DNA of 64,000 nt from Squalus acanthias (GCA_030390025.1 CM059452.1:5952001-6016000), one strand, 5' to 3'. Positions 8,913 to 56,310 are shown, numbered from the stretch's first letter. Numbers and translations: made by a program. The notes: generated by a model not told the origin, from the sequence alone.

Positions 8913-9388
8913 ATGGGACTTGCCCCGTGCCTCTGTTTGTTACTGGCTTGCTTCGCCTGTGAGTATTCCTCACGGCTTTAGTGACACGATAGAAGATAGC
9001 TTCAGATATTGTGCTTTTATTTCTGTTCATTGATGTGAATGTTCTCCAATGTAATTGCATTTTTTTCATTCACTGACAGATGTCCGGTCCGATATCGTGC
9101 TGACCCAGTCGGCTTCTGTGTCGAAAAAGCCCGGAGAATCTCACAAACTGTCCTGTTCAGTGAGCGGGTTCACTCTGGGCAGCTACCACATGCTCTGGGT
9201 GAAACAAGTTCCCGGGAAGGGGCTGGAGTGGCTGCTTGCTTACAGAAGTCCGTCGCATACCAATTATTACGCGCCTGGAGTCCAAGGTCGAATCATCCCT
9301 TCAAAAGGATCTTCCACAACCTATATCGAGATCAATAATCTGAGAACCGATGACACCGCCATGTATTACTGTGCAAGAGACGGGGGGT
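8913..9388 (+). CDS. IGHV: Immunoglobulin heavy-chain V segment (leader exon 8913-8958, V exon 9080-9388), open frame, IgW-like sequence, ending in a probable D1 remnant
   Basis: Leader MGLAPCLCLLLACFA|gtgagt...acag|YVRS; DIVLTQ..C..WVKQVPGKGLEW..DTAMYYCARDGG. Confidence 0.95.
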
Positions 9389-9426
9389 CACGGTGCTGTA
9401 CAGAGCGAGCTCCTCATACAAAAACC
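9389..9426 (+). other. RSS, 22-bp spacer (cacggtg-22-acaaaaacc), D1-type
   Basis: Heptamer 9389-9395, spacer 9396-9417, nonamer 9418-9426. Confidence 0.92.
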
Positions 9427-9646
9427 CCAGACAGCGAGTTTGCTCACACCTGCGATCACTGCCACGGCAGGAGCGTCGAAGGAAATGAGGCTTGAATGCA
9501 AATAATGGGTAGAAGTAATATAGCTTTGTAAAATGACCAGCACAATCTGAAATATCTCACTGATGCACTCTTAGCGGAGTCGGAATCAGCGTTTTGAGAG
9601 CGCTGTGGAATTTCATCTCTGTATTTTACAGTTAACAGTCCGCCGG

Positions 9647-9715
9647 AGTATTTGGCACGGCGTGTCTCACTGTGGTACAGTGGGTGGCACAGCAGTTACT
9701 GTCAATACAAAAACC
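9647..9715 (+). other. IgH D segment (9675-9687, gtacagtgggtgg) with 12/12 RSS (D2-type)
   Basis: agtatttgg-12-cactgtg [D] cacagca-12-acaaaaacc. Confidence 0.92.
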
Positions 9716-10041
9716 CCTCAGCACTAATTGTGTGAGTCTGGGTCAGTGCTCGCTTTCACAATCCAACTGTAGATGCAGTGAAGTCCTATTTGTGTCCAGC
9801 ACTGTCCACTAGCACAGTTTAACATGGATAAACTGTGATAATTAATCATTGATCAGTTGGTGATTTCAATAACTGTTCATGGGTTACTCTGTGAAATATA
9901 AAACATCAGGGAATTTATAAAGAGTGAAAAGTATCCATTGACACATTTATCATTTTATGAAGATCCATCGTGACTTTACTTTTCCTCTGGGATGTGAATA
10001 TTTAAACTAATGTTGGATTTCTGTCTGTTTTACACAGAGCC

Positions 10042-10128
10042 GGTTATTGTGTGACCCAGCCCGGGGAATGTAACACTGTGACGCCATGGAATACTGGGGA
10101 CAAGGCACCATGGTGACGGTGACTGCAG
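10042..10128 (+). CDS. IGHJ: IgH J segment (coding 10081-10128) with 23-RSS
   Basis: ggttattgt-23-cactgtg; AMEYWGQGTMVTVTA|gtaaga. Confidence 0.95.
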
Positions 10129-13300: not shown

Positions 13301-13613
13301 CATTGAAATTGACAGATTGAAGAGATCTATCTGCTGAGAGCACGATTGTTGCACCGTTTGTGTCTGTTCTGTTTCTGTGCGCCTGCTCACTGTGTGAGAA
13401 TCAGGAGTCCTCCTGACTGGTTGTAAACCTGCTGGTTTGTTCTCTTGTGTTTCATGGAGTACAATTCGACTCATTTATTTCAGAAGCTTGTATCTGTGAG
13501 AAATGCGATAGTTTGACTTTAAGTTTGAGGAGGCGCCTCCGAACTGGACTCAGTAACCCAGTTTGTGACAATCAGAAGAGCATTTCAGAAACACGTCTGG
13601 CAGAGAGTAGAAG

Positions 13614-14705
13614 GAGCTTTAATCAGTTTCTAACCCGTGCCGTACCTGCCCCGGGAGTGTTTAATGGGACAGTGTAGAGGGAGCTTTACTCTGTATCTAA
13701 CCCGTGCTGTACCTGCCCTGGGAGTGTTTGATGGGACAGTGTAGAGGGAGCTTTACTCTGTATCTAACCCGTGCTGTACCTGCCCTGGGAGTGTTTGATG
13801 GGACAGTGTAGAGGGAGCTTTACTCTGTATCGAACCCGTGCTGTACCTGCCCTGGGAGTGTTTGATGGGACAGTGTAGACGGAGCTTTACTCTGTATCGA
13901 ACCCGTGCTGTACCTGCCCTGGGAGTGTTTGATGGGACAGTGTAGACGGAGCTTTACTCTGTATCGAACCCGTGCTGTACCTGCCCTGGGAGTGTTTGAT
14001 GGGACAGTGTAGCGGGGGCTTTACTCTGTATCTAACCCGTGCTGCACCTGCCCCGGGAGTGTTTGATGGCACAGTGTAGATGGAGCTTTACTCTGTATCT
14101 AACCCGTGCTGTACCTGCCCTGAGCGTGTTTGATGGGATAGTGTAAAGGGAGCTTTACTCTGTATCTAACCCGTGCAGCAGCTGCCCTGGGAGTGTTTGA
14201 TGGGACAGTGTAGAGGAAGCTTTACTCTATATCTAACCTGTACTGTACCTGCCCTGAGCGTGTTTGATGGGACAGTGTAGAGGAAGCTTTACTCTATATC
14301 TAACCTGTACTGTACCTGCCCTGAGCGTGTTTGATGGGACAGTGTAGAGGGAGCTTTGCTCTATATCTAACCCGTGCTGTACCTGTCCTGGGAGTGTTTG
14401 ATGGGACAGTGTAGAGGGAGCTTTACTCTGTATCTAACCCATGCTGTTATGCCCCGTGAATCTTTGATGGTTCAATGTAGAGGGAGAATTTACTCTGTAT
14501 CTAGCCCATGTTGTACCTGCCTTGGGAGTGTTTGATTGTGCAATGTAGATGGGGCTTTACTCTGTATTTAACCAGTACGGTGCCTTACCCGGAGTGTTTG
14601 ACAGTGCTGTGCAGACTTGGCGTTGCTCGGAATCAATCCCTTCCTATACCTGACGGTACAGCAGATGGCAGGGCAGTGCAGAGGGAGCTTTACTCTGTAT
14701 CTGTA
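13614..14705. repeat. 67-bp minisatellite, about 16 copies
   Basis: Unit gagctttactctgtatctaacccgtgctgtacctgccctgggagtgtttgatgggacagtgtagagg; period 67 (13681 to 13748). Confidence 0.95.
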
Positions 14706-17842: not shown

Positions 17843-18142
17843 CGACACAGTCTCCTCCCACCCTCTACGCCCTGCTCTCCTCCTGTGAACAACCCAACAC
17901 CGGCGGCCCCGTCACCTACGGCTGTTTGGCGATGGACTACTTCCCGGAAATCACCAGCCTTTCCTGGAGTAAAGATAAAGAGCCGATCACCACTGGATTG
18001 AAGACCTACCCGTCAGTGTTCAACAAGAAGGGAACCTACACCCTGAGCAGCCAGTTAACCATCACCGAGTCAGAGGTGGGGAGCAGCGCCATCTACTGCC
18101 AGGTTCGACAAAGTGGGTCGGACTGGAGCGTCAAAATGCCAG
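17843..18142 (+). CDS. IGHM: IgM heavy-chain constant exon Cmu1
   Basis: ag|(A)[67 protein letters not shown]..|gttagt; typical shark Cmu1. Confidence 0.95.
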
Positions 18143-19129: not shown

Positions 19130-19441
19130 ATCGTGTGGTACATCATCCAACTGTGATCCTCACCCTGAGTTCCAGTGAAGAAATCATCAGCAGCAGGTCT
19201 GTAACCGCCGTGTGTTCAATCATCGATTTCCGTCCAAAGTCAATAACCGTGAATTGGCTGAAGAAAGGACAGCTCATGGATTCGGGCTTCGTCACCTCTC
19301 CCGTCTGTGAAGTGAACGGGAACTTCTCGGCGACCAGTCGGCTGACATTCCCCGCTGGGGAATGGTTCGCCGGCTCGGTCTATACCTGCCAGGTCACTCA
19401 TCAAGGGGTCACCCAAAGCCGAAACATCTCCAGATCTCAGG
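19130..19441 (+). CDS. IGHM: IgM constant exon Cmu2
   Basis: cag|(D)[59 protein letters not shown]|gtaaga. Confidence 0.95.
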
Positions 19442-21576: not shown

Positions 21577-21885
21577 ATGGTTCCTCATGCAACGATCCAG
21601 AAATCACTCTTCCGCAACCGTCACTAGAACAGGTCTTACTGGAGGCGACGGTGACCTTAACCTGCGTCGTGTCTAATGCTCCTTATGGAGTCAACGTGTC
21701 CTGGACCCGAGAAAAGGAGACTTTGAAATCAGAGATTGCCGTCCAACCCGGAGAGGCTCCCAACAGCGTGATCAGCAACTTAAACATCTCGACACAAGCC
21801 TGGCTGAGTGGGGATGAGTTCTACTGCGTGGTGAGCCATCAGGATATGCCGACTCCTATAAGAGATTCCATCCACAAGGAAAAAG
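21577..21885 (+). CDS. IGHM: IgM constant exon Cmu3
   Basis: cag|(D)[64 protein letters not shown]|gtgagc. Confidence 0.95.
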
Positions 21886-22403: not shown

Positions 22404-22795
22404 CTAAACATCCGCGGGAACCGTCCGTGTCTGTCCTCCTGCCCCCGGCAGAAGAAGTCTCCGCTCAGAGGTTCGTCAGCCTCACCTGCTTAGTGAGAGG
22501 TTTCTCCCCCCGAGAGATCTTCGTCAAGTGGACCGTCAATGACAAGCCGGTGAATTCCGGCAACTACAAGAACACCGAGGTGATGGCGGAGAACGGCAGC
22601 AGTTCCTTCTTCATGTACAGCCTGTTATCCATTGCAGCGGAGGAGTGGGCCAGCGGCGCTTCTTACTCCTGTGTGGTGGGACATGAAGCGATCCCCTTGA
22701 AGATCATCAACAGAACGGTTAATAAATCCAGCGGTAAACCCAGTTTTGTCAACATTTCCCTTGTTCTGATGGACACCGTCAATTCTTGTCAATGA
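22404..22795 (+). CDS. IGHM: IgM constant exon Cmu4 plus secretory tailpiece (internal donor after 22733 for the membrane form)
   Basis: [50 protein letters not shown]|gtaaac; tail [20 protein letters not shown] with an N-glycosylation site and penultimate Cys. Confidence 0.96.
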
Positions 22796-25680: not shown

Positions 25681-26321
25681 TGCGCGAAAAAACCTCAGGC
25701 TATAGACGAATGTAGAATTAAAATGCACTTTTTGAACGAACACAGTTTCCAACGATTGTTCTGAATGAATAATTCCTGATACCATAACATCTCACATTTC
25801 TCTATTCTGGTCCTACACATACACTGAATCAATGTTCTTGTTGGAAACTGATACAAGTTAATTATGTTCAGAGTATTGCAATAACAAATAAATAAACAAG
25901 ATTATAAATCACATCTGATCTCTTACCCAGCCCCCTTGACAGTCTCCAAATAAGTAGCTATCTAAACCTATCGTTAAAATAATCGATATCAATCAGTAAA
26001 CCTCCCTCGATATTTCATCATATTATTCCCGAATGATAGATTGTACGAAATTGATGCAAAATCAATTAGCGTGTGACATTGAAGAAAAAACTGTCGTTTT
26101 TTCCAACACGGACTATAGGAGGATCATAAAGGAAGAGCGACTGTGGAGTTAGGAACAGAGATAGATTGCTGAGAGAGATTAACTTAACACAAGATATACA
26201 TTGAAAATTCAATTAGAGAAAAAACTGATACCTTAAGGAAAAGAAGGGAATATATAATAATAATATGATATCTTGGATTAATAAACGATCTGAATATATT
26301 TCCGCCTCTACATCCCCGTAG

Positions 26322-26449
26322 ATTCCTCAGACCACATCTTGATTGAAGACTATGAGGAAGAGAGCGGCAACATCTGGACAACCGCTTCCACATTCATCAT
26401 CCTGTTCTTCCTGAGCATGTCCTACAGCGCTGCCGTCACTCTAGTGAAG
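26322..26449 (+). CDS. IGHM: IgM transmembrane exon TM1
   Basis: gtag|(D)SSDHILIEDYEEESGNIWTTASTFIILFFLSMSYSAAVTLVK|gtgaga; conserved antigen-receptor TM motif. Confidence 0.95.
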
Positions 26450-26589
26450 GTGAGAAGATTCAATCCACTCACACTTCGATCTGACTGAAGCGGTTTGACA
26501 AATCTCTAAAAGTTTCATTGATAAAAACCCTGAGATAAATGCCCCAAACCACTAAATCTCTGCTTCATTCTTTTATCCCTCTTTTACAG

Positions 26590-26598
26590 ATCAAGTGA
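26590..26598 (+). CDS. IGHM: IgM exon TM2 (IK*; cytoplasmic tail KIK)
   Basis: ttttacag|atc aag tga; aataaa at 26662 and 27055. Confidence 0.88.
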   Translation: MK

Positions 26599-27498
26599 AC
26601 GGTTGAATTTCGGACGCCGTGGATTTTCCTCATCTGTTTATTAACATCTCTGTGTCCTGAAAATAAAATATATCCTCTTGGTGATTCTCAGAGTCAAATG
26701 TCTTCAGTTAATAGATCCGAATCTGTAGCTGAGAAAATCAGAACCGGGATTTCCGTCTCTCTGTTTGAAATGTGTGAGATAATCGTGGCTATAATGTAAA
26801 TGTATCTCAGAGTTTCACCGTTGTTTGAATATTTCATGTGTAAATAAGTCACTTTTCTCATTCGTAATTGACAATTGTTCCCTTCCCTTTATGTTGAGCC
26901 CCTGTTTTCTCTCCCTGGTGTCTGTTACAGTTGTACAGATAACTGGCAGCTCAGACCGCCTGTGATCTGGTCTCAATGTGACGCTCTGTTGTTATATTCA
27001 CTTTGTGTTAACTTTTTAAAAACTTCACTGTAAATTGTTCTCAGTGAAATTGTGAATAAATCTGGAATTACAAATGAACTAATTTGGACTTTGCTGAATT
27101 CCTTTCTCCAAGGTTCCTCCACACTGCTCCATTTTCCCTATCACACTTTGTTTTATTTCCCTGACAAGTATTTTTCACCCGTCCTGTCTGGGTTGTGTTT
27201 GAACCCAAGTCCCTTCGGTTAAGGAGCCACTGCGCCACCTAGTGTCCCATCAGAGTAACGACACCTTTACCCCTGACTTTTTATGTCAAGACCCAGAGGC
27301 GGAATGACTGCATAGCGACCAACAGCGACCAGGCGCACCTCGCAGTCTCCTCTAATATTATGGTCTGTAACAGTCACATGCCAGGTTCTAATAAAGAGCA
27401 GGGCTCTGGTCCATCACAGTTTGATACATTACAGGACATGGCAGAGTAAATCTCCCTCTACACTGTTCCATCATACACTCCCATGGCAGGTACACACT

Positions 27499-28460
27499 TA
27501 GCATAGAAGCATAGAAGATAGGAGCAGGAGTAGGGCATTCGGCCCCTCGAGCCTGCTCCGACATTTAATGAGATAATGGCTGATCATCCAAATTCAGTAC
27601 CCTGTACCTGCTTTCTCCCCATATCCCTTGATCCCTTTAGCCTTAAGAAATATATCAATCTCCTTCTTGAATATATTTAATGAATTGGCCTCAACTGCCT
27701 TCTGTGGTAGAGAATTCCACAGGTTCACCACTCTCTGGTGAAGAAAGTCCTCCTCATCTCAGTCCTAAATGGCTTACCCCTTATCCTTAGACTGTGACCC
27801 CTGGTTCTGGACTCCCCCGCCATCGGGAACATCCTTCCTGCATCTAGTCTGTCTAGTCCTGTTAGAATTTTATAAGTTTCAATGAGATCCCCTCTCATTC
27901 TTCGAAATTCTAGCGAATATAAGCCTAATCGACCCAATCTCTCTTCATACGTCATTCCTGCCATCCCAGGTATCAGTCTGGTAAATCTTCGCTGCACTCC
28001 CTCCATGGCAAGAGCATCCTTCCTCAGATAAGGCGACCAAAACTGCACACAGTACTCAAGGTGTGGTCTCACCAAGGCCTTGTACAACTGCAGCAAGACA
28101 TCCTTGCTCCTGTACTCGAATTTCTCTCGCTATGAAGGCCAACATACCATTTGCCTTCTTAACCGCCTGCTGCACCTGCATGCTTACCTTCAGCGACTGG
28201 TGCACAAGGACTCCCAGATCTCGTTGCACTTCCCCTTTTCCCAATCTATTGCCATTCAGATAATAATCTGTCTTCCTGTTTTTGCCACCAAAGTGGATAA
28301 CCTCGCATTTATCCACATTATACTGCATCTGCCATGCATCTGCCCAATCACCCAACCTGTCCAAATCATACTGGAGTTTATCTGCATCCTCCTCACAGCA
28401 CACACGCCCACCCAGCTTTGTGTCGTCTGCAAACTTGGAGATATTACATCTAGTTCCCTC
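27499..28460 (-). mobile_element. CR1 3' fragment, near-identical inverted copy of 32079-33035
   Basis: FADDTKLGGRVCCEEDA..., LVRPHLEYCVQFWSPYL, same 3' UTR. Confidence 0.92.
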
Positions 28461-33035: not shown

Positions 33036-33076
33036 AAATGATCTGCTGTTTTCTGTCTAATTCTAAACCAGACACC

Positions 33077-37304: not shown

Positions 37305-37690
37305 TTGAAGCATACAAAATTATTACAGGGCTTGATAGGGTGGATGCTGGGAGAATGTTTCCCTTGGCTGGGGAGTCTAGAACCAGGGGCCACAGCCTCA
37401 GGATAAAGGTTAGGCCATTCAGGACTGAGATGAGAAGAAATTTCTTCACACAGAGGGTGGTGAATCTTTGGAATTCTCTACCCCAGAGGGCTGTGGAGGT
37501 TGGAGTCATTGGGTATATTCAAAACAGAAGTCGATAGATTTCTGACTAGTAAGGGCATCAAAGAATATGGCGATAAGGCCGGTGAATGGAATTGAGGCAG
37601 AAGATCAGTCATGATCTCATTGAATTGCGGAGCAGGCTCGAAGGGCCGAATGGCCTACTCCAGCTGCTATTGCTTATGTTCTTATGTTCA
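37305..37690 (+). mobile_element. CR1 3' fragment
   Basis: GESRTRGHSLRIK..RRNFFTQRVVNLWNSLP and 3' tail. Confidence 0.88.
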
Positions 37691-37709
37691 TTCAATTCCA
37701 AGTCACTGT

Positions 37710-38241
37710 GAGAGATTCAGTCAATTTCTAATAATACTGGCGGCTGTGTTGAACAGTAAGTATTGGATTATATATAAAATAGAGGTTAGCTGGTTGATGC
37801 AAAGAGCGTGTGCAGGGATTTAGTGCAATTACCGATCAGAAATATTCACATGATGGACAGCTGTGTAGATGAAGGGTTACACACTCTCATACAGATAGAC
37901 ACAAGTTTCGATTTAATCTTCTGCTCTTCTCTTCCCCTATGTTCACAGGCGGGCTGTGTGCAGATCCAGTAACTCAGTCTCCGGTGACAATTGCCGTGTC
38001 AACAGGGGGTTCGGTGCAGTTAGATTGTGAAAATACAATCCCGGATATTGACTGCATGCAATGGTATCGGCAGAAATCGGCACAGCCACCAAGCTGGATA
38101 ATTAGCAAAGTGGTAGCACTGAAGGGAGACGAAATCTCAGGACAATATCTGGCAGCTGCTAATACGTCGAGAAAGTACGGTTACCTCAATATAAGCAGCC
38201 TGAGTGTGGAGGACGGAGCGGTCTATTACTGTGCAGTGAGG
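37710..38241 (+). CDS. TCR V segment (V4): open V exon 37949-38241; leader exon ends 37755 but lacks a native ATG; RSS cacagcg-22-acaaaaacc (38242-38279)
   Basis: ..FSQFLIILAAVLN|gtaagt; DPVTQSP..VQLDC..CMQWYRQ..DGAVYYCAVR; may be a pseudogene. Confidence 0.75.
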
Positions 38242-38394
38242 CACAGCGTCAGAAAAAGCAAAGGCCCCGGACAAAAACCTCAGCGAGAATTTACAGCTCC
38301 ATCAAGTGTTCTTTTGTGCTGCTTTCTGTGGGGTTAATTTGATCCCAAACCCACGGAGACTAAAGACAGCCAGGTTTCTATTTCAACGAGTTGT

Positions 38395-38763
38395 ATTTGT
38401 GTCTGTGTCTTTGCCCAAATCAGCGGAGAACCGGTCTGGGAAATCTGGAGACTTCACTCCCTGCCCCGAGCTGTATCTCCTCATTAAATAACTCGGATCT
38501 TCCCCGGGGATACTGGTTGTACCAGAAGAGGTAGAGAAATCTATCGGCTGTGGAGTAACTAGAGCTCAGTATTAAGATCTGTCCTTCCTGAACCGTTAAT
38601 TCAGGTGGATCCTGGGAAAATGAGGCTTCGCCATTGTAACAAAATACTGAATCTGTCAGAAGTCTGGGAGTAAATATAACCCATGAAATACATACGATAT
38701 TTTAAACATAGACTCACCGGGCAGCACGACCATTATTATCAGTAAGAAACATGGGGAGCGCAT
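38395..38763 (-). pseudogene. TCR V pseudogene (V5; V1 family), 3'-truncated
   Basis: Leader MRSPCFLLIIMVVLP; acceptor deleted, Cys to Ser, frameshift, ends in FR3 with no RSS. Confidence 0.85.
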
Positions 38764-38928
38764 GGTGTCTGGTTTAGATGGGAGTCTCCGGCTCTGATAC
38801 CAGAACAACATCAACTATTGGTCACTGGCCCCATCTCACAGACTGACGCTGCTAAAGGGCGAACATTGGCTTTAATCCTCGTGCAGTTCTGAGGAGAACA
38901 ATTTCACTCCGTTCTCTGATCCCCGCTC

Positions 38929-39050
38929 TGACGTCATGAATTGGCGAACAAAGTAGCTGTGAGCTGATTGGTTGAATTGGAAAACAAAGGAGCTGCAAAC
39001 TGATTGGATAAATTGGAGAACAAAGGACCGAGAGCTGATTGGATGTGATC
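38929..39050. promoter_or_regulatory. CRE (tgacgtca) plus three CCAAT-box repeats between divergent V genes; inverted copy at 36790-36910
   Basis: tgacgtca at 38929-38936; three ctgattgg at about 36-bp spacing. Confidence 0.6.
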
Positions 39051-39179
39051 TGCTGACTCTGTCGGGAACGGACCAAACAGCAGAGAGACCGGATATTACT
39101 CAACATCTTCCCAATTCTTGACAAGACAATTTCAGCTTCAAACCGTTCTGTTCAAATCCACCACCAACTCTCTGCAAAC

Positions 39180-39870
39180 ATGTTGGGTGTTACTTTTTAT
39201 TTATTCGTCACAGCTGCAGCTCTCTTAACTGATAAGTTCACAAGTTACACAGCATTGTGTTTCACATCTGTATCATACATTATATTTAATATGTCAGTTC
39301 CCTGAACAGATGAATATCAATAGGTTGATCCGAAGTGAAGAAAACCATCAGGATCCACCTTGACTCAACACTGAACACTGTTTGGGGAAACTCGACAAAC
39401 TCCCTCAGTGAATGAAAGCGGATGAGTTGAGGTGAGATTACAGGCGAATGGCAGACAGACAAGCCCGTCGGCGTCAATGACGGACATTGACAGACACACG
39501 AGTCTTAAACCCACATACCGTTTGGAGTTTTCCCTTCACATCACAAGAGGTGAAGGTGAGGAACTGATCCCGTTGGAAGGTGCTGAAGGTTTATTAAAGG
39601 ATGTTTATTCAGTCGATCCCAGCGCCATCCCGTGAGCATCCCCTGAGCTGTGGGGATATATATTTATGTTCAACTGCCCTGATTTGCTTCACAGTTAAGT
39701 GTTGAGGGTGACGGGCTGATTCTGGTCGGTAAACAGAGTGAAGTGACATTGTTTAATTTAATATCGCTCTGGGCTCTTGCAGGACATGGGCGAGGAGACT
39801 CCGGTTCACAAACACCGGCTGCAACCACAGTAAATGAAGGAGACGATGTTCCGTTGTATTGTAATTATAC
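39180..39870 (+). pseudogene. TCR V (V3-type leader 39180-39231 with GT to AT donor; partial V exon from 39783, cut by a gap)
   Basis: MLGVTFYLFVTAAALLT g|ataagt; GDSGSQTPAATTVNEGDDVPLYCNY then Ns; pairing of this leader and exon is inferred. Confidence 0.6.
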
Positions 39871-40059: not shown

Positions 40060-42457
40060 AGTGAAAGACTTTCATAGAGGTAACCAGGCTGCTGACTGAG
40101 AGACAGATGGACAGCGGCCTGTCTGGGCCTCGGTCGCTTGTTCTCCCTGAGCAGGGGGACCAGTTTGTATTCGGGTTCCCACAGTGCGGAGACACAGAGA
40201 AAGGAATCACTGGACACCGGGAAATGCAGGAGGAAAAACATACTGACTGTCTGGAGCCTGTGCACAAAGGTCACGAGCATCTGGCGCCAGTAGAACTGAA
40301 AGGAAATGAAAGTCAGTTGTTGTGAATGTGGGTTGTGAGATGTTGTTTATTTTTCAGTTCAGAAAGGGTTAAATCTGCGAGCGCAAGCTGTCAATTTCCG
40401 AGCTCGAATTCATCTGATTAATGTTTCTGTCGCTGTAAGTGTTGATGTAAAAGGCCGTCAGCATCACCGCAACACAGTTCGCTATAAATGGGCACTGGAA
40501 ACTGCCCATAGATTCACTGACTGTCTGTTTTCACCCAGGATCTCAAAAGTGTAAAAGTTCCCATTATATCCGCCAGAGGGCGCCGTGCTCATATGTTTCT
40601 CGCTGCTTCCTTCGCACTTCGTCCCATGTTATTCATGATATGTCGAAAACCATCAACATTTCAAACCTGTTTATATGTGTGTTGTGTTCCTGGTGTTCAG
40701 TAAAATACCTCCCCTCTCGCTTGTTCTGTCTTGCTTTCACCGTCACAATTTCTCTCCACCGCTCTTATGAATGATTTCCTTATACTGCAAATCTTAAAGC
40801 AACTGCAAAGTGACATTTTTGGTAGTTTTGTAAAGCTGCAGTTTGAAAAAAAATCTCTTATATGCTAAAATATGTAATGGGCGACACACTCAGAGAGACA
40901 GGATTGTAACCCGAGTGAGGAGTTTCTCCCGTGTCACTAACCACTGTTGGACAGCCTGGAGAGATGTATGTTGGACATCTTGGGGAGTTACGGGTTAACA
41001 GTCGAACTTCTTTGTATCTTGGATTAACAAGCTTCCAGGCTTTCCAAGATATGAACAGGATGACTTTGAAGTGTCGTAAAAAGAATGCACTGCTTTGTTT
41101 CTGAGATGTAAAGTGCTTGTGTAAGGGAATAAGTGATAGTAATGACGTCACCCATGAGTGGTTTAGTTTTAGGGTAATAAACATGGTTAGATGGATCCAT
41201 TAGCTACAGAGAGCAGTTGGTACAGTATTTACTTCAAAGATGCTAGCAAATGTCCTGTCAGGAAGTCTTGTTTAAGGGACGTAGTTATGAATTAAACAAA
41301 CAACAAACTGTTTAGATGAATATTCCGTTTTCAAAGGGTCTGGGAATAGATACGTCATACAGGCTTATCTATGACATTGCCCTTGGATGTAGTCAAATTA
41401 TTGTGTATAAAGGATTGTGGTTTTCAACAGTATCTCAGCGTGTACTCGAAAGATACAGAAACCGAAACAGTCACTCTCTGTATACAGTTAAAGGCTGGCC
41501 ACCTTTACTGTGCATCAATAAGGTCTGTTCCGTATACTCCACCACGGAGTCTCGTGCTTACTGGAAACGTGTTGCTGTGAACCACAGGAGAAAGGAGGTT
41601 GACTGCTGACAACCACCATTTCCCTCCCCGTGTGATTAATTTCCGCGCCTCCTGTTAGTTTCAGGCAGACATTAATCTAACGGGTTCAGCAGATATTTAG
41701 GAAAGGGGCTCCTATTCCCTCCGAGCTATTGTCAACACAGTCGGATGATGGCGGTTAGACATTATCTCGAAATGACAATATATCGGTTTGAATGTAGATG
41801 AAGATGTTCAGTTTATTTCACTCACTGTCAGTAATCAGACTGAGGTGGTTGACGGGGGCGGGTTTGATTAATCTTCTGATGGGGACACACAAGGGGAAGA
41901 TTTCCTCTGGTCTCTCTGTGGAATTCTCCTCTGAAATTGTTTTAACGAAATCGCAATCTCATTCTTTTAGAATGCGTTCATTATTTTGTTAGAAATAGCG
42001 ACCAGAGGAAATCTCAACCACAGTTTGGACACCTCGGTGTAAACACGAATGTTACAGGAGAATGAAGTTAATGCTCTCGATGAGTCGTCACACACCAGCA
42101 TAAAATAGACACTCAGTGTGACCGATTCGGCCCCGGTGAATATAATCCCACAATTAAGCAATGCTGAAGTTTTCCTCAGACCAAGGAATGCCCTCACTGA
42201 GTGACGGCTCCATAGGCCGATACTTTATGCTGTGACTGTCAGTATCGCTGATCAAACCCGCTATCAACTGGAAATTATAGAGACAAACCTTGCGGTCACA
42301 CTGCCTGCGGCAGCCCCGCCCACAGCTTCCGTTCGCTGCTCTCGCTCTGACCCGCCTTGCCAGCCCTATGTTTTTGGAGAGATTGCTGCAGCTGTTACGG
42401 GACTGTAAACAGGAGGGAGGTTTTTGTACAGTGACTGCCGCGTTTCCTCTCAGTGTA

Positions 42458-42888
42458 CGGCTGTATCGCACAGTAATACACCGCGGTATCCGCGCTCTCC
42501 GTGCTCTCAATGACCAATTGGCCGCGTTTGTCCGCAGTGGAAAGATCCATTTCAAATCGGTCCCTTCTCTCTTTGCCAGCCGATATTCGCCTTATTACCC
42601 ACTCCAGTCCCTGACTGGATCTCTGTTTGTACCAGTGCATGGCGTAAAAGCTGGACATGTCATAGCTGCAGTTTATCTGCACCGAATCCCCGCTCCGGAC
42701 TGTTATCGCAGCGGGAGACTGCAGCACTCGGTCCGAGAGACATCGACCTGTAAAAACATTCAGATAATAAAACACTGGAGCAACGTGAATAAAACAAACA
42801 CAGCGGGTTATTGAGCACAGCTCCTGTACCTACATGGTAGCAGCACCAGAATAACGAGTGATACATTCACTGGTACCGAGTAATACAT
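42458..42888 (-). pseudogene. TCR V segment (V6): open frame, but heptamer mutated (tacactg-23-acaaaaacc, 42419-42457)
   Basis: Leader MYYSVPVNVSLVILVLLP (42834-42888); exon from 42747 DRVLQSP..INCSY..MHWYKQ..DTAVYYCAIQ; the invariant CAC is lost. Confidence 0.8.
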
Positions 42889-43164: not shown

Positions 43165-43485
43165 AAAACACGTACTGTGGAGGCTGCCCAGGGTGCTGAC
43201 TGCACCAGTACACATAAGGGGTAGTAGCGGCTGTTTTCAAGGCGCCGTTTAGTGTGACATTACTTTCCGCTTCAACCGTTATTTCAGGAACCGCCTGTTC
43301 CACTGCGTCTTGCAGGATCGATTCTAATATAAAATAATAGTAATAGTCATCTCCTTCACAATGATCATCAGGATCATTTAACCAATTATCATAGCTGGGT
43401 TACAGCCGTCAGGATTTTAACTGGGGAGGAAATACTTACTGAGAAGTGATATAATGATGAGGAGCGGTGCGAGGCGGTTGCACAT
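43165..43485 (-). pseudogene. TCR V pseudogene (V7), 5' half only
   Basis: Leader MCNRLAPLLIIISLL|gtaagt; QDAVEQ..ESNVTLNG (Cys to Gly)..QHPGQPPQYVF*; paralog of V10. Confidence 0.8.
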
Positions 43486-44235
43486 TCTACAGTCCTGGAA
43501 AACCTCTGTAGGAGCAGAAATACAGATCCCCGCCGCACTGCACTGCTGATCCAACCAATGCCAAAGAAGTAACAGAGGCAATAATCCCTCCGATAACAGA
43601 AGGCGGGTCAGAGCGTGAGCAGCAAACGGAAGCTGTGGGCGGGGCTGCCGCGGGCAGTGTTACTGCAAGCTTTGTCTCCATCATTTCCAGTTGGTAACGG
43701 CCAGAAACATGTGACCACGGCGCCCTCTGGCGGTCACTCTGAGAACTTTGCACTGTCAGGATAATAGTTTGAGTAAGGTGTGAATTTATCTATGGCGAAA
43801 TTTCCAGCGTTCGAGTTTTGGGAGAGGCGGTTCAGACAATTTAATAATTTTTGAATCTCTTTCTTTATGGCTTTCTCTTACCTTTAAGATTTATGTTTCT
43901 CACTCGTTGTTTCTCACTTTCTTTAATTTCTCTTTTCCTCCTTTCCTAATTTGTTGTCCACTACACGTACTATTACATTGATTTGTCTCTTTCTCTCATT
44001 CTTTCATTAGTGCCTTCGCTTTGTTTTCCTCTCTCTGTGTTTCAAAATTTCTTCATTTCAGAATTTCTTTAAATCTCTCTCTTCTATATTTCCTATTATT
44101 TTTCTGTGTTCATTCCCTCTGCCCTCCGATTATTATATCCGGGCCCCTCACAATCCCGTTGCTCCAAACACAGCAGAGCGGCGCTCCCCCTCGGGGCAGG
44201 ATTCTGTGCGGACTCCGCCTGTTTGTTACACTGTG

Positions 44236-44677
44236 GGCTCACGGCGCAGCGATAGGTGGCGCTGTCTGTCACTCGCGCGGCTCTCACAGTCAGGGCACTG
44301 AGTTTATTGCCTCCCCCGATTGAAGCAGTGATCCTCCCGTGTTGATCGGTCCCGCTTGTGGTCATCACCAGGTGCTGGAGGGTCTGATCCGGGTTCTGTT
44401 TGTACCAGCGCACGACGCTAAACGCAGCGATAGTGGTGCAGTTGATGGACACGCTTCCCTCTTCACTTACAACCACCCGTCGAGGGAGCTGCTCCACCTC
44501 ATCTTCACCGCTCACATCCGTGCAGATCAGAGTGTAAATCAGCAGGGAAACTCAGTAAATCCGGAGCATTATCCGATCAGATGAAGAGGAGGCTGAAGGA
44601 ATTGTACACAGAGGTCGTGTTAGGACCAGGACACTGATATTATATTCAGGAGTATAAAAAAGGAGCCAAACTCCCAT
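44236..44677 (-). pseudogene. TCR V (V8): open V exon, but acceptor AG lost, leader degenerate, RSS spacer 21 bp
   Basis: EDEVEQLP..VSINC..WYKQNP..DSATYRCAVS; cacagtg-21-acagaatcc (44199-44235). Confidence 0.72.
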
Positions 44678-45623: not shown

Positions 45624-46108
45624 ATGGGGGATATTCACCTCTTCCTGCTCTTATTATTCTGTGAGTATTACCCATCTGGTTTTATTAATTCTGCTCTATA
45701 AACTGCTGTTTTCCAATGTCAATGGAGTTGGGAGGAGACTCGTGTGGAGCATAATGACAGGTATAGACCAGTTGGGACGAATGACCTGTTTCTGTGCTGT
45801 ACATTCTGTGTAATTCTTAAATTGTGTCCAAAGATGCTCCGAGTTTGGCCCAGATTTCTCAACCTGTCCGAGAGTTCGCAGTGGAAGGAAATCCCGTCAG
45901 GATCCAGTGAGGGTTCAGCACGACCGACAACACCTGTTGGTACAGCCGACTGGTGAGCGAGGCCCCGGGATACATCCATTGTGGGTTCAAAGGAGAGCGC
46001 CACCAAGGCCGGTTTAAGATCCACACCGACCGGGATCAAAGTCTGAGCGCACTCGGCATCGACCAGACAGAGTTGGCGGATACCGGAATCTATTACTGTG
46101 CCGTGGGC
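45624..46108 (+). pseudogene. TCR V pseudogene (V9); 23-RSS 46109-46147
   Basis: Leader MGDIHLFLLLLF|gtgagt; exon from 45834; first Cys codon is TGA (45908-45910); ends DTGIYYCAVG. Confidence 0.85.
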
Positions 46109-46749
46109 CACAGTGTGCGGGAAAGGCCCCGCTCTCCTACAATATCTCCTCTCTGAGCAAAGTCTTGGTCGATTGGGTGACAGTCAAATCGGTTCCGAAA
46201 TCGACCAGTTCAGGCAAAGGGCGGTGGTCAATCCGCAATTATATTTCTCAATATTAATTAAGGTGAAATTCCTTTTCATTTCACATTTCTGCTCATTAAT
46301 TTTATAATTTCCTTACACTTTTTTTCTATTTCCCACCGCTAGTTTCAGCCATTGGTTTTAACCCACTTCACTGTTGAAGCCTTTGGTAACAATCGCATAA
46401 TATATTAATTCTGCAATTCCTTTCGCCGATCTGCTTGCCCCGAATTTGTAACGAATGTGAAAGTAACGCAGCCCTTATAGAGAGGCAGAGTTGTATAATT
46501 TCCGAACGGGCCATTATTATTGAATTCAGATCCTACGTGTGACAACACTGCCCGCGGCAGCCCCGCCCACAGCTTCCGTTTGCTGCTCTCGCTCTGACCC
46601 GCCTTGCCTGCCCCGTGTTATTGGAGGGATTTCTGCCCCTGTTCCCGCTTTGGCATTGGTTGGATCAGCAGTGCAGTGGGGCGGGGATCTGTATTTCTGT
46701 TCCGACAGAGGATTTCCCGCACTGCAGAGTTACAGACTCAGGGAGCATC

Positions 46750-47214
46750 ATGCGGAACCGTCTCGCACCGCTCCTCATTTTTATATCACTCCTCACTAAG
46801 GATTTCCTTCCCAGTTAAAATCCATTCTCCCCCTGACTGCTGTAACCCAGATATTATTATTGGTAAAATGATGATGAAGATGATAAAGTGATGATTATTT
46901 TATATTAGAATGGAGCCTCCAAGACGCAGTGGAACAGCTGGTTCCCGGAATGACGATTGAAGAGGAAAGTAATGTCACACTAACCTGCACCTTGAAAACA
47001 ACCGCTACTAACCTTTATGTGTTCTGGTACAGTCAGCACCCCAGGCAGCCTCCACAGTACGTGGTTTGTATTATTGCAGGTATAGTAAACTGGAACCCCG
47101 ACTTCACTGACCGGTTCAATTCTACGTTTAATAAAACCAGTAAGATTACCGAGCTAACGATCAGCAACGCCCTAATCTCAGAAACCGCCGTGTATTTCTG
47201 TGCCATGGAGCCCA
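46750..47214 (+). pseudogene. TCR V (V10): open V exon 46909-47214, leader donor mutated (ctaagg); RSS cacactg-24-acaaatacc (47215-47254)
   Basis: MRNRLAPLLIFISLL; QDAVEQ..VTLTC..FWYSQHP..ETAVYFCAMEP. Confidence 0.8.
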
Positions 47215-48384
47215 CACACTGCTGCAGAGATATAGCGGATCCCGCACAAATACCCACACTGAGAGTTCGAGTTAGTGCTCACCAGAGGGCGCTATCACCC
47301 CGATAAACAGAAGCGATAATTCAGCCTCCACAGTGAGAGTCACAGGGAGATTCTTGAAAGGGCATCAGAACACAACACTTAACAAGAAAAGGTGAGGCCC
47401 ACTTGCGGAATTATGTTAGTTTGTGATTTCTACTCCCATTTATAATAAAAAATAACTTCACAATTCCATCTGTGGTGCCTTACCTCCCCTTTTGTCTTTT
47501 GATGCCCTTTCAGTGCCTGCCTGTCCCTTCTCATATCTTGTCTCTACTCTTCACCCATAATCCTGCGAACTTCCTTCTTCCAGTCTTTAGTTTAACGATG
47601 TAAAACCTTTATTCAGAGCCGCTCCAACCCAGCTTCCCATAAACAGGAACTGCAGACAGGTCAATGAATAAACACAGGATTTCTCACCCTGTCCACCGAC
47701 ATCTGAACAGTTCTCAGAATATCCACCAGAGGGCGGCAGGTCACAATATTTACTTTTTGGCTCAGACACCGGGCAGTGAGTTAAATGCTGTTTCTCTCAT
47801 AGTTGTGCAAATGTTGGAATGAATTGAAGATTAATATTTGAAATCCACTTGACACAATGGGCTGGGTCGGTACGTCTGGCAATAATCATTAAAAAAGACA
47901 TCCATCGTATTGTAGGATTGAATTCCGATACCAACCAGTGAGTGGAAGGGTGTGGAAGATGGGGAAAGGAATATTAAAATGTGAATGAAAGACACACCTT
48001 GAGATCTGATTTCTGAAGCTATTAACTGTACCGATGGTGAAGATCGATGTTAAAGGGGCAAAAGAGAAACCGAAACCGCCTGTAGTTTGGTTTTTTTTCT
48101 GCGCCACGTCCTTTTCTAATACGAGTGAAAGTTGTAAGGAATTTTTCCACTCCCTGCTGGTGTTGAGCTCTTGTTATCGAGGACCCGCCCTACACCTCAC
48201 CCTCGGGGCTTTGAACCCGCTCCCGCGCTCTGCTCCCGGCCACTTTAAGCAGATGAGCGATAATTTGCTGAAACGCGCCGATGCGCCGCAGTCTCCGTTC
48301 TCTCTCATTGCAATTCCAAAACTGAAGATTATGGATCTCTAAATTAATTATTCCAGGCCCGAAGTAGGTCACAAATCACCAGAT

Positions 48385-50328: not shown

Positions 50329-50804
50329 ATGGGAATCCTCCTTGTTTTCACGCTGTGTGTCTGTTTACCCCGTGAGTACCGATCAAACAAACCGATATTG
50401 TGTGGATTTAATATAAAGCTGCCCGGGTCCATCCGAATTGCGGACACTCTCTGGGTTTTAGCCCCGTTGTGTGGTTCGGCTCTGATGGCCCATTAAACTC
50501 TCTCTGTTTAATTTCCAGGCTCTTTCAGTCAGTCAGTGACACAGACCCCGCCAGCGGTGACCAGGGAGGAGTGTCAGTCTCTCACCATCACCTGCGTTTT
50601 CTATGGTGGGTTTTGGGGTTATAATTTCCAAAATGGACATTTCTTCAGACAAACCCAGACCCGGACAGAGTGGGAGCGGATCTCGAGCGGAGGACGATTT
50701 GTTGTGAGGACGAATAAGGCAGAAACGACGTTTTTCCTGGAAATTCGGGATGTGCGAGTTGAAGACAGCGCCACCTATTACTGTAAAGCTGAGTACAGAG
50801 TCCA
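50329..50804 (+). CDS. NAR-TCR V segment (leader 50329-50371, V exon 50519-50804); RSS 50805-50841
   Basis: VTQTPPAVTREECQSLTITC..FFRQ..WERISSGGRFVVRTNKAETTFFLEIRDVRVEDSATYYCKA: short VNAR-type domain lacking CDR2, with an extra FR1 Cys. Confidence 0.88.
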
Positions 50805-51165: not shown

Positions 51166-51234
51166 GGATTTGATGCTGACTTGAAACACTGTGTTTACTG
51201 GAACCTCACAGTGGATGAGACCTGAGCAAATACC
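51166..51234 (+). other. NAR-TCR D segment (51194-51206, tttactggaacct) with 12/12 RSS
   Basis: ggatttgat-12-cactgtg [D] cacagtg-12-gcaaatacc. Confidence 0.88.
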
Positions 51235-51550: not shown

Positions 51551-51637
51551 GGTTCTTGTACCGGGGTGACTGAGAGCGGTGTCACTGTGGTTATTATTAT
51601 GTGGATGGATCCGGGACGGTGGTGACTGTCACAGCCG
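51551..51637 (+). CDS. NAR-TCR J segment (coding 51590-51637) with 23-RSS
   Basis: ggttcttgt-23-cactgtg; YYYVDGSGTVVTVTA|gtaagt. Confidence 0.9.
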
Positions 51638-52133: not shown

Positions 52134-52308
52134 CTACAGCGGCCGGTTCGATACCTGCAGCGGCCGGTCCGATACCTGCAGCGGCCCGTCCGATACCTGC
52201 AGCTGCCCGTCCGATACCTGCAGGGGCCCGTCCGATACCTGCAGGGGCCCGTCCGATACCTGCAGCGGCCCGTCCGATACCTGCAGGGGCCCGTCCGATA
52301 CCTGCAGC
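52134..52308. repeat. 21-bp GC-rich tandem repeat, about 8 copies
   Basis: Unit ggcccgtccgatacctgcagc/g. Confidence 0.9.
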
Positions 52309-53219
52309 AGCAGAAACTCTGGAGCACAACAGGGCGGGGCTTCAGATGCAAGTGATCCGCCTGTAGGTCTGGATGGCATTTCATTATTGGGCATTCAGTG
52401 ACTTAAATTAGTTGTATTTTATCTGACATTGATTCCAATTGCTTTTATATAAACAATCATTTTGCCTCCATGTCTCTCGTTTAAGTCGAAATGTCAAAGC
52501 TCCGAACTACAGACACTTTGCTATATTATTTTATATTGTTCGATATTTTCTAATCAATCCAATAAGGAATTCAGGAGGAACTTCTTTCCCCAGAGAGTGG
52601 TCAGAATGTGGAACTCGCTGCCACAAGGAGCAGTTGAGCCGAATAACATCGATACATTGAAGGGGAATCTAGATAAGTAGGTGAGGGAGAAAGGAATCGA
52701 AGGATCTGTTGATGGGGTGAGATGGAGTAGGGGTGGGAGGAGGCTCGTGTGGAGCAGTAACACCGGCATGGACCGATTGGTCCCAATGGCCTGTTTCTGT
52801 GCTCTACATTCTGTGTAATTCTGTGTAATATTAATGTTCATGTTTGAGAGATCGGATTGCAGTAATTTATCTGTATCCATGGTTACTGTTAACTGAAACA
52901 ACACTGGGCAGTGAGCGAGTGAGGGCGAGGTTCTAATGTTCCTATAAAGGAGAGCAGGAACACCCGAGGGAACAAGTACAGACTGGAGGGAAGTCCATTT
53001 AGAACCAGCAAGAAATCATTCACCGAAAGGGAGAGAAATATCGGACTTCACTGGCCAGGTGGGGGTGTGGAGACACCGGTCTCTGGACCGTTCAAGGCAC
53101 AATATGACACCGGGGCAGTGAGATTTACTGGAGGGACGGGCTGCGATTGGACTCCGGCCCTTTTCTCAGCTTTGGATTTCTTACACTCCTGAGAGAAGAG
53201 ACATCAGCAGCAATCCACA

Positions 53220-54650
53220 CATTCCTGGAAAGATTGAACAGGCGGGGACTCTTTTCTCTGGAAAAGAGAAGAAAACGAGGAGACCTGATGGAGGTGATTA
53301 AAATGATGAAGGGGTTCGATAGGGTGCACGAGGAGAAACTGTTTCCATTGTGGGTGAGTCCAGAACAATAAATATGAATTAGTCACTAACGGGTCAAATG
53401 CAGGATTTAGAAAGAATTTCATTGCACAGAGAGTGGTGAGAATGTGGAACTCGCTGCCACATAGAATGGTTGAAGCAGATAAAAGTGACAAATGCAGATG
53501 ATACAAAGATGGGAGGGAAAGTAGAAAGTGAGGAGGACATAAAAAACCTACAAGGGGATATAGACAGGCTGGGTGAGTGGGCGGAGATTTGGCAGATGCA
53601 ATACAATATTGGAAAATGTGAGGTTATGCACTTTGCCAGGAAAAATCAGAGAGCAAGTTATTATCTTAATGGCGAGAAACTGGAAAGTACTGCAGTACAA
53701 AGGGATCTGGGGGTCCTAATGCAAGAAAATCAAAAAGTTAGTATGCAGGTGCAGCAGGTGATCAAGAAGGCCAACGGAATGTTGGCTTTTATTGCTAGGG
53801 GGATAGATTATAAAAACAGGGATGTATTGCTGCAGTTATATAAGGTATTGGTGAGACCGTACCTGGAATACTGCATGCAGGTTTGGTGTCCATACTTAAG
53901 AAAAGACATACTTGCTCTCGAGGCAGTACAAAGAAGGTTCACTCGGTTAATCCCGGGAATGAGGGGGTGGACATATGAGGAGAGGTTGGGTAGATTGGGA
54001 CTCTACTCATTGGAGTTCAGAAGAATGAGAGGCGATCTTATTGAAACATATAAGATTGTGAAGGGGCTTGATCGGGTGGATGCGGTAAGGATGTTCCCAA
54101 GGATGGGTGAAACTAGAACTAGGGGACATAATCTTAGAATAAGGGGCTGCTCTTTCAAAACTGAGATGAGGAGAAACTTCTTCACTCAGAGGGTAGTAGG
54201 TCTGTGGAATTTGCTGCCCCAGGAAGCTGTGGAAGCTACATCATTAAATAAATTTAAAACAGAAATAGACAGTTTCCTAGAAGTAAAGGGAATTAGGGGT
54301 TACGGGGAGCGGGCAGGAAATTGGACATGAGGCTGAGTTCGGATCGGTCAAGGCCCTGTGGGTGGCGGAGCGGGCCCAGGGGCTGAGTGGCCGGGTCCTG
54401 CTCCTACTTCTTGTGTTCTTTAGATTCGATGTTAGGATCAGATCAGCCATGATCTTATTGAATGGCGGAGCAGGCTATGTTCTTATTTAAGGGGAGACTT
54501 GATACAAACATGAGGGAGAAAGAAATCGAGGGACACAGGGGTCAGCGTGGGAAGAGGTAGTTAGAGTGGGAGGAGGCTCGTGTAGCGCATAAACACCGGC
54601 ACAGACCAGTTGGGCCGAATGGCCTGCTCCTGTTCTGCAGATTCTGTATA
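53220..54650 (+). mobile_element. Nested CR1 3' fragments (younger copy about 53490-54485)
   Basis: ADDTKMGG, LVRPYLEYC, RRMRGDLIETYKI motifs. Confidence 0.88.
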
Positions 54651-55666
54651 ATGTAAAACTCAGAGAAAACTCCGCCTGGAGAAGACGGGAGGGAATCAGC
54701 CAATGGGCTGAAGGAATTGAAGTTGTCAGAGAGCCGGAAGAGCCAGTTCCCAGTGAGTAACAGTAAAACCACAGCGGAAACTGCACAGACTGAACCCAAC
54801 CGACAACTGAGAGACTTTGGGACAAGTTCTCAGGCTGGCAAAAAACCACAAACAGCACAAAGTGAGCGACCCAGATGTGGAAATAAAATGAAACAAATTG
54901 TAAATAATTCAAATTAAAGTGAAATGGAGCAAAAGGCGCCCCACTGATGGAAGAAAAGAGACAAATAGAGCGAGAGACAGACAGGAGTTCCCGTGAACTG
55001 TCAAAACTGCAGTAAAAGATTGACCTTTGACCCACAGATTTTCAGTGTCAGTTTGGCTCAATCGGTGCTGATGAATCTCACTGCTTTCTGTTGGATCTTG
55101 CTGTGCACAGTGATATAACACAGCCGGGTCACTCTCGGTCAAACATCATTGGAATGTGGTTGTCTCAGTGAGGAGGAGAATGGACTATTATTTTTTTCGG
55201 GTTTGTCTTTCACCAAGAAAAATAAAAACAAAAATTTAATAGAAATCATAGAATCATACGGCAGAGAACGAGGCCATTCGGCCCACCTTGCCTGTGCGGC
55301 TCTTTGAAGGAGCTATTCAATTAGTCCCACTCGCCCCGCTCTTTCCCCATAGCCCCGATAAATTTTCCTTTTCCAGTATTAATCGAATTTCCTGTTGAAA
55401 GTTACTATTGAATCTGCTCCCACCACCCTTTCAGGCACTTCATTCCAGATCATAACGGCTCACTGCGTAAATACATTTCTCCTCAGTGCCCCGCCCCCCG
55501 CCCCTCCCCACGCCGGTGCGTTTGCCAATGACAGTGAATAAAGTCGGAACAGGCTTCAAATGAAGAACAGCATAAGCGCGAGAGGCAGAACTATTCCTGT
55601 GATTGACAAGTGTCCCCGGGTAAACAGCAGCCGAATAAATAACATTTCCCAATTTTAATCCCGCAG

Positions 55667-55972
55667 TTTCCAGTTTCTCGGTGTCCCAGGGACCGCCTCT
55701 ACAAACCTCTGCTGCCGGAGACACCGTTACTTTAAGCTGCGAATATTCAGGGATCTGTCAGCATACAGTACACTGGTACCGTCAGTCCACAGGGCAGGCT
55801 CCGAAATACCTGCTCCAGAGACACACTTCAGGAGAGGGGAATAAAGAAAACGCTGCCGGGGGACGAATTTCTGCTTCTGTGGATGGTGCGCAGAAAATCA
55901 GCCGGTTAAACATCGCGAAACTGCAACTGAGTGACTCCGCTGTGTATTACTGTGCACTGAGTCCGCGCACAG
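55667..55972 (+). CDS. NAR-TCR supporting TCR delta V (leaderless, CDR1 Cys); 23-RSS 55973-56011
   Basis: cgcag|(V)SSFSVSQGP..VTLSCEYSGICQHTVHWYRQ..DSAVYYCALS; phase matches the J donor at 51637; cacagtg-23-acaaaaacc. Confidence 0.88.
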
Positions 55973-56310
55973 CACAGTGATACAGAGCACGGAGAGAGCC
56001 GTACAAAAACCTGAACATGGTGAGGATTACAGACACACAGTGATACAGAGCACGGAGAGAGTTCAAAAACCTTAACATGGTGAGGATTACAGACACACAG
56101 TGATACAGAGCACGGAGAGAGTTCACAAACCTGAACATGGTGGGGATTACAGACACACAGTGATACAGAGCACGGAGAGAGTTCACAAACCTGAACATGG
56201 TGGGGATTACAGACACACAGTGATACAGAGCACGGAGGGAGTTCACAAACCTGAACATGGTGGTGATTACAGACACACAGTGACACAGGGCACGGGGAGA
56301 GAGTAAAAAT
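55973..56310 (+). repeat. 60-bp tandem array derived from the V RSS (five extra heptamers)
   Basis: cacagtg at 55973, 56036, 56096, 56156, 56216 and 56276. Confidence 0.93.

Follow-up and report, generated by a model that had tools for sequence, protein, structure and literature searches.

Does an intact antibody gene lying directly beside T-cell receptor (TCR) V segments represent an isolated abutment, or does it belong to a larger arrangement that would expose antibody genes to recombination in T cells? The question is raised by a stretch of 64,000 nucleotides from the 3.7-Gb genome of Squalus acanthias (C29:5,952,001-6,016,000, C29 being scaffold CM059452.1), hereafter the window. In it an immunoglobulin heavy chain (IgH) gene of the IgM class precedes an array of TCR alpha/delta V segments and a NAR-TCR cassette; the protein relatives of the window are all from cartilaginous fish, and its features are listed by window position in Table 1. 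A first-pass annotation of this DNA had described a single abutment of IgM gene and TCR Vs. The junction is real, but it is one among many copies: on C29 (5.96-10.32 Mb) a mosaic extends in which IgM clusters and NAR-TCR cassettes lie among TCR Vs, and the window makes up one of its units.

The extent of the mosaic is seen from the copies of its parts. Full-length matches to the fourth constant exon (Cmu4) number at least 30 on C29, at 94-100% identity, between 5.97 and 10.27 Mb (18 on the plus and 12 on the minus strand; median spacing 103 kb), and at least 32 copies of the transmembrane (TM) region are on C29 among the 40 matches listed (40 of 83 candidates scored). For the TCR V at 35 kb of the window, 12 of the 13 copies on C29 are preceded, 9-13 kb upstream, by an IgM TM region on the same strand, compared with a mean of 0.76 and a maximum of 6 such pairings in 10,000 random placements. 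A contiguous sample of 250 kb held two whole IgM clusters approximately 135 kb apart together with 48 TCR-V-like matches on both strands, 33 of which were full-length and stop-free. The supporting Vs of NAR-TCR cassettes alternate with the IgM clusters in both orientations, and a NAR V lies upstream, at 1.5-5.3 kb, of all 16 found on C29. The interleaving of IgM with TCR alpha/delta and NARTCR Vs by which the elasmobranch antigen-receptor complex (AgRC) is recognised is thus found on C29.

The end of TM2 is separated from the leader of the first TCR V by 6,478 bases without N, which agrees with the gap-free 6.5 kb given by the annotation. Ten other copies were fetched, nine selected for TM-V pairing and one for its TM only, and each is collinear with window sequence from TM1 up to and including the second V, at 94-98% identity and without N. 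Nine of them extend to approximately 42 kb or beyond in window terms, and the copy at C29:8.666 Mb matches window 26000-39870 in one 96% block that includes both pieces of an inverted LINE (long interspersed element) pair, which we take to be of the CR1 type. A mis-join of the assembly at this pair, which the annotation had itself named as fatal to its reading, would be favored by the near-identical repeats and the inverted LINE pair in the junction and by a region rich in 94-100% paralogues and unplaced pieces. Because the ten copies repeat the same junction, each with its own differences, and one carries both LINE pieces, a mis-join is contradicted and not credible; we give it almost no chance. 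The window is one of the copies of this unit, an IgM minicluster with a TCR V block behind it. The copies occur in both orientations, were probably produced by repeated duplication of the two parts together, and lie in a mosaic of approximately 4 Mb that is likely to serve the TCR alpha/delta locus as its V region.

IgM clusters also occur outside the mosaic, on C130, on C988 and at C29:16.6-18.2 Mb. TCR V searches listed no match around the clusters at these three places, and TCR Vs were absent from the flanks of the C130 and C988 clusters within approximately 6 and 15 kb, respectively, past TM1. Clusters inside the mosaic (at least 30) and those outside it can serve as internal controls that set position against lineage state.

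The annotation had proposed to extend the contig in search of Ddelta-Jdelta-Cdelta. No such set, and neither Cdelta nor Calpha, was found on C29; matches to the Cdelta query were confined to C911, an unplaced piece of 864 kb (131 of 131 candidates scored), and it is there only that the D-J-C parts were found. C911 starts 121 bases before Cmu1, inside an IgM cluster, and continues with Cmu2-4 and TM1, TCR Vs, VH-like segments, Ddelta, Jdelta, Cdelta (583 kb), Jalpha and Calpha (782-784 kb). Its D-J-C parts are all on the plus strand, with one Ddelta, flanked by 12- and 23-recombination signal sequences (RSS), and ten Jdelta RSS, and it carries 99 TCR-V-like matches (72 plus, 27 minus). Directly before the single Ddelta, at 373-519 kb, stand 30 VH-like segments approximately 4 kb apart and all on the plus strand, a block whose position is TAILV-like. 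Six Cmu2-like relics are scattered among the C911 TCR Vs (65-231 kb). Neither 1-450 kb nor 515-595 kb of C911 contains an N. In this assembly, an IgM gene of the window's family is in cis with Cdelta on C911, which makes cis linkage of the window to Cdelta likely as well. No NAR-TCR cassette was found on C911; of the 18 strong matches to the supporting V, all belong either to the IgM mosaic or to two further unplaced pieces. Since NAR-TCR chains are reported to use Cdelta (PMC12227049), we infer that the mosaic must supply the cassettes.

Other landmarks did not place C911. None of 28 proteasome-family matches (PSMB5 synteny) was on C29, the IgW-like cluster (IgW synteny with the AgRC) sits on the unplaced piece C284, and no assembly gap that could receive C911 was found at C29:10.31-10.41 Mb. 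At C29:5,801,887 an unjoined V-D1-D2 paralogue runs into the 500-N gap at 5.803 Mb and is a candidate for the 5' half of the IgM gene with which C911 opens, but the C911 end matches neither flank of that gap.

Alternatively, the window island could be a displaced duplicate (orphon), severed from Ddelta-Jdelta-Cdelta, in which the IgM gene works alone and the TCR Vs are unused. Such an origin would suit the lack of Cdelta or Calpha on C29, the gaps on either side, the 70% tandem repeat content of the upstream 150 kb, the zinc-finger-like stretch downstream (84-bp repeats of zinc-finger type between the window contig and the main mosaic) and the four broken Vs of the window. However, the main mosaic is 0.4 Mb away on the same scaffold, eight V exons and the entire NAR-TCR cassette keep open frames, and the great white shark mosaic is also interrupted by long gene-free stretches (PMC12227049 Table S1). 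An orphon V array was the second circumstance that the annotation had said would undo its reading, and the position of all the strong supporting-V matches off the Cdelta scaffold makes it unlikely; overall we regard an orphon island as improbable.

If the mosaic is the V region of a TCR locus, then which IgM segments could reach Ddelta depends on their RSS. The annotation had described a V-D-J cluster in the window, and V, D and J are indeed present and intact, but the cluster is actually germline-joined, VD1-D2-J. In the unjoined paralogue at C29:5.802 Mb the layout is V(23)-(12)D1(22)-(12)D2. At its 3' end the window V carries a short G-rich insert plus the final D1 bases; behind these come the D1 22-bp RSS and the D1-D2 spacer, which in unjoined paralogues lie 430-470 bases further on. 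The V-D1 intergenic DNA and both facing RSS are gone, junction bases have been added and the downstream D1 RSS is retained, as in a germline join. The idea of a single-D cluster was dropped after comparison with the unjoined V-D1-D2 paralogues. In a non-random sample of 22 clusters, consisting of the window, the C29:5.802 Mb paralogue and 20 chosen to span both V families, 7 were unjoined, 3 VD, 4 VDD and 8 VDDJ, and the 22/23-RSS is retained in 10 of the 22 (7 unjoined and 3 VD, window included). By the 12/23 rule, the 22-bp RSS of the window VD could pair with the 12-RSS that flanks the single Ddelta of C911. An 855-base contig from another sample spans 9310-10125 without the V-D1 spacer (22 other letters, 9 gaps) and, judged by this alignment, places a VD-joined relative in that sample, be it DNA or RNA.

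Identity of the window V is 69% with the horn shark IgW V W26, 63-64% with the V in the IgW-like cluster on C284, which has seven C exons unlike Cmu, and 42-58% with other IgM Vs. A 30-row tree puts it with IgW-type Vs, although the uniting branch carries no star. Measured in this way, the window V appears nearer to IgW V than to the IgM V family that prevails in the genome. A catshark model 81% identical to the window V bears a locus tag consecutive to that of an IgM C model, which suggests that the pairing of an IgW-related V with Cmu is old. This apparently IgW-related V family on Cmu clusters gave 12 matches at 76-100%, with unjoined, VD, VDD and VDDJ states all present.

A gene so placed would behave differently in two lineages. 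In B cells it would act as a self-contained IgM cluster, needing only the VD-to-D2 and D2-to-J joins. In thymocytes, opening of the mosaic for RAG as a V region would expose the embedded IgM segments. TCR Vs and NAR-TCR cassettes would join the single Ddelta/Jdelta and the Jalpha region by deletion or inversion, some joins having to be inversions since the Vs of the mosaic and of C911 occupy both strands, and the IgM clusters would be cut as bystanders, mostly within a cluster, where the partners are 300-400 bases apart. A minority of V(23) or VD(22) segments would be joined to Ddelta in cis, and the products would be the IgHV-TCRdelta chains that have long been described as trans-rearrangements; VDD or VDDJ clusters could not do so, as only V(23) or VD(22) ends can pair with the Ddelta 12-RSS. 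We tentatively propose, with rather less than even confidence, that most shark IgM genes are part of the TCR alpha/delta locus; that the IgM and TCR V block is the unit of duplication, such that the two repertoires expand together; that embedding causes the untranscribed IgH rearrangement of thymocytes; and that "trans" joins are cis V-D joins gated by germline-join state. If this is true, the making of TCR alpha or delta should delete or invert megabases of IgM genes in T cells. The bystander mechanism fits data from nurse shark, in which thymocytes have extensive, partial and untranscribed IgH rearrangement with few if any light-chain joins; 60% of the germline IgH band is lost in thymus, rearranged IgH was found in 44 of 48 single thymocytes, and two IgM genes (G2A and G5) are 120 kb apart (PMC2435157).

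Passive hitchhiking would predict a different outcome: IgM and TCR Vs would have co-duplicated as neighbors, each cluster would be insulated, embedding would leave RAG and AID targeting unchanged, and chimeras would come mainly from the VH-like segments beside Ddelta. A CTCF-like motif directed back toward the IgM gene stands at the same position behind TM2 in 11 of 11 copies when up to 3 substitutions are allowed, and also behind one IgM cluster on C130, outside the mosaic. Such motifs, scanned for with what we take to be the CTCF consensus (the RSS consensus used here is likewise our working assumption), number 9 in the window as against 0.55 in 20 shuffles. Hitchhiking would also be consistent with the 30 VH-like segments directly before Ddelta on C911, and with the 12 of 22 clusters that are joined beyond a state able to reach it. 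Against it, no more than 3 of 10 copies of the predicted site pass a stricter threshold, TCRdelta chimeras with IgM and IgW V are reported to be common (PMC12227049), and thymocyte IgH rearrangement is extensive (PMC2435157); we consider hitchhiking unlikely, though less so than an orphon origin. Further CTCF-like motifs lie beside TCR Vs at 33573, 37128, 40570, 43733, 47279 and 47723, two of them 25-30 bases beyond an RSS. The motifs turn with each duplicated unit and so hold no directional information toward Ddelta.

Several points weigh against reading the window as a co-duplicated unit of a TCR V region whose IgM genes are cut as bystanders. The contig that holds the window ends on either side in a 500-N gap, at C29:5.803 Mb and at 6.036 Mb, and between the window island and the main mosaic, approximately 0.39 Mb, all 14 sampled 10-kb pieces were without an Ig or TCR match. 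C911 is unplaced relative to C29, and its interval 450-515 kb lies outside the sequence examined. The IgM gene on C911 and the TM region at C29:6.035 Mb have V neighbors that differ from those of the window, so there is more than one junction type and not every cluster belongs to a window-type unit. Among the window's open Vs, the RSS spacers at the best heptamer are 24 bp in two and 21 bp in three, which may lower their use, and the CTCF-like motif past TM2 is a candidate 3' boundary that may insulate the IgM gene. A chromatin domain shared by the IgM gene and T-cell V genes, as the annotation had it, is not supported. The thymocyte data come from nurse shark, another species in which the locus layout may differ, and PMC2435157 attributes the rearrangement to a general precursor chromatin state, noting that mouse thymocytes rearrange IgH without such embedding. 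Given that proposal and the mouse case, the fit of the nurse shark data does not prove the bystander model.

The claim of an intact IgM gene with canonical splice sites holds. All IgM exons of the window are bordered by AG/GT, and the frames from J to the secretory tail (secreted form, 453 codons from J) and from J to TM2 (membrane form, 478) contain the terminal stop only. One V, two D and one J stand before one C set, as in an IgM minicluster, with V fused to D1 and with D2 and J free; the set has four Cmu domains, a secretory tail, TM1 and TM2, all open and spliceable. Over Cmu4 and the secretory tail, identity is 90% with a named shark IgM and 86% with nurse shark mu. When four contig sets were aligned to the window IgM, three runs, presumed to be RNA, showed the Cmu2-Cmu3 and Cmu3-Cmu4 joints, which were absent from the fourth; as paralogues are 94-100% identical, these joints are seen at the family level only and none is assignable to the window copy. 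The J-Cmu1 intron contains a 67-bp satellite (13598-14702) that also accounts for a large share of the 150 kb upstream (C29:5.77-5.95 Mb). On C130, four sites (e.g. 538,710 and 543,019) have paired Cmu4-like exons approximately 4 kb apart, which suggests IgM genes with a duplicated last domain.

Between 33 and 56 kb, open frames with RSS are found in six V segments on the plus strand (33.2, 35.0, 37.9 and 46.9 kb, the NAR V and the supporting V) and in two on the minus strand (42.5 and 44.2 kb). Four Vs are broken (36.1, 38.5, 43.2 and 45.9 kb), and one more V-like segment is partly N. The IgM gene had been described as co-oriented with the intact TCR Vs, which is correct for the six plus-strand Vs but not for the two open Vs on the minus strand.

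The NAR-TCR cassette that had been assigned to the window is complete, open and in phase: leader, NAR-type V, D, J and a leaderless V with a 23-RSS are all present with their RSS. The best PDB match of the NAR V is an IgNAR V domain, as are most of the other 40, and the NAR-TCR V and supporting V match shark gene models of V-V or V-V-Cdelta build. The RSS of the supporting V has grown into a tandem array, with 5 copies in the window (55973-56330) and 3-28 copies within 2 kb at 10 of 10 other supporting Vs examined. A 37-kb array of the same 60-63 bp unit lies at C29:6,051,802-6,089,079, with approximately 600 copies, 491 perfect heptamers and a spacer of mostly 20; it ends at a 200-N run inside the locus. 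In four C29 cassettes two NAR Vs precede one supporting V (6,801-6,814, 7,891-7,901, 8,193-8,205 and 8,592-8,602 kb).

Table 1. Features of the window, in window positions.
Feature	Position	Strand	Remarks
IgM leader exon (L)	8913-8958	+	AG/GT borders, open frame
VH exon	9080-9388	+	joined in germline to D1 3' end, short G-rich insert; apparently IgW-related V family
RSS derived from D1	9389-9426	+	22-bp spacer; 3' of VH
D2	9675-9687	+	12-RSS on either side
JH	10081-10128	+	23-RSS
Cmu1	17843-18142	+	
Cmu2	19130-19441	+	
Cmu3	21577-21885	+	
Cmu4 and secretory tail	22404-22733, tail to 22795	+	stop codon 22793-22795
TM1	26322-26449	+	
TM2	26590-26598	+	
CTCF-like motif	27232-27245	-	0.63 kb past TM2, directed back toward IgM gene
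Inverted LINE pair (presumably CR1-like)	27503-28461 and 30534-33038 (span 27503-33038)	.	both pieces also in C29:8.666 Mb copy
TCR alpha/delta V, open frame	33077-33548	+	RSS spacer 24 bp (22 on alternative heptamer)
TCR alpha/delta V, open frame	34863-35377	+	23-RSS; 13 copies at 92-100% on C29
TCR V pseudogene, frameshift	36090-36658	-	good 23-RSS
TCR V, open frame	37650-38279	+	22-RSS
TCR V pseudogene, frameshift	38398-38763	-	no RSS found
TCR V, open frame	42419-42866	-	RSS spacer 21 bp; strand opposite IgM gene
TCR V fragment	43169-43485	-	
TCR V, open frame	44199-44551	-	RSS spacer 21 bp; leader exon not located
TCR V pseudogene	45624-46147	+	first half frame-broken
TCR V, open frame	46887-47254	+	RSS spacer 24 bp (22 on alternative heptamer)
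NAR-TCR leader	50329-50371	+	
NAR-TCR V	50519-50804	+	RSS spacer 21
NAR-TCR D	51194-51206	+	12/12 RSS
NAR-TCR J	51590-51637	+	23-RSS
Leaderless supporting V-delta of NAR-TCR	exon 55667-55972, with RSS to 56011	+	23-RSS
60-63 bp tandem repeats grown from supporting V RSS	56012-56330	+	heptamer kept, spacer shortened

If it acts as proposed, the layout would account for the rearrangement of antibody genes in shark T cells and for their hybrid receptors. With IgM clusters both inside and outside the mosaic, this assembly makes directly testable the old puzzle of nurse shark thymocytes, in which most IgH genes are rearranged but untranscribed and light chains are spared (PMC2435157). RSS state also sorts the clusters into possible and impossible V donors to TCRdelta. 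The layout also bears on AID access to shark TCR alpha (PMC5931798) and on the transition from cluster to translocon organization.

In the elasmobranch AgRC all IgH isotypes show linkage with TCR alpha/delta, some TCR Vs standing between IgH clusters, and this proximity has been invoked for chimeras and for TCR hypermutation (Flajnik et al. 2025, PMC12227049). According to Table S1 of that paper, great white shark (8.4-17.1 Mb) and stingray both have IgM in alternation with TCR alpha/delta V and NARTCR V, and the order V/IgM, Ig-like V, Cdelta, Calpha is given for stingray. The annotation had named IgH V segments or defective clusters as the known neighbors of TCR alpha/delta; the layout is real, but intact IgM among TCR and NAR-TCR Vs had already been tabulated there. 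A single junction is therefore unsurprising, and the window is a further case of a published layout, larger in extent than the annotation claimed. Like the AgRC, the present locus has TCR Vs between its IgM miniclusters, on what is likely a TCR alpha/delta chromosome, and the C911 order is that of stingray. It differs in what has been drawn from it: the available text of PMC12227049 gives the interleaving one sentence, treats the loci as linked neighbors that trans-rearrange, and does not describe co-duplication, the scale of at least 30 clusters, RSS compatibility or consequences for thymocytes. In the accessible parts of the literature we found no description of co-duplication of an IgM and TCR V block or of its link to thymocyte IgH rearrangement, although Deiss 2019, Ott 2021 and Criscitiello 2006/2010 may cover part of this.

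Partly germline-joined elasmobranch IgM clusters are known as VD-J, VD-DJ and VDJ, and the window resembles them in having V fused to D in the germline with an open frame and the remaining cluster intact; relative to those outlined in the review (PMC5192425), it is distinguished by VD1 with free D2 and J, a V that appears to group with IgW V, and a 22-RSS predicted to be usable for Ddelta. The cassette follows the described NAR-TCR plan, in which NAR-type V, D and J precede a leaderless supporting V-delta with a 23-RSS (PMC12227049, PMC6795676), whereas here the cassettes found occur in either orientation, all of them among IgM clusters and away from the Cdelta scaffold, and an RSS-derived tandem array follows each of the supporting Vs examined. 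The VH-delta/TAILV segments of sharks, frogs, birds and monotremes (PMC12227049) are likewise Ig-type Vs able to join Ddelta, and the block of 30 on C911 resembles them; they are, however, Vs without a constant region of their own, whereas the window holds a whole, intact B-cell receptor gene.

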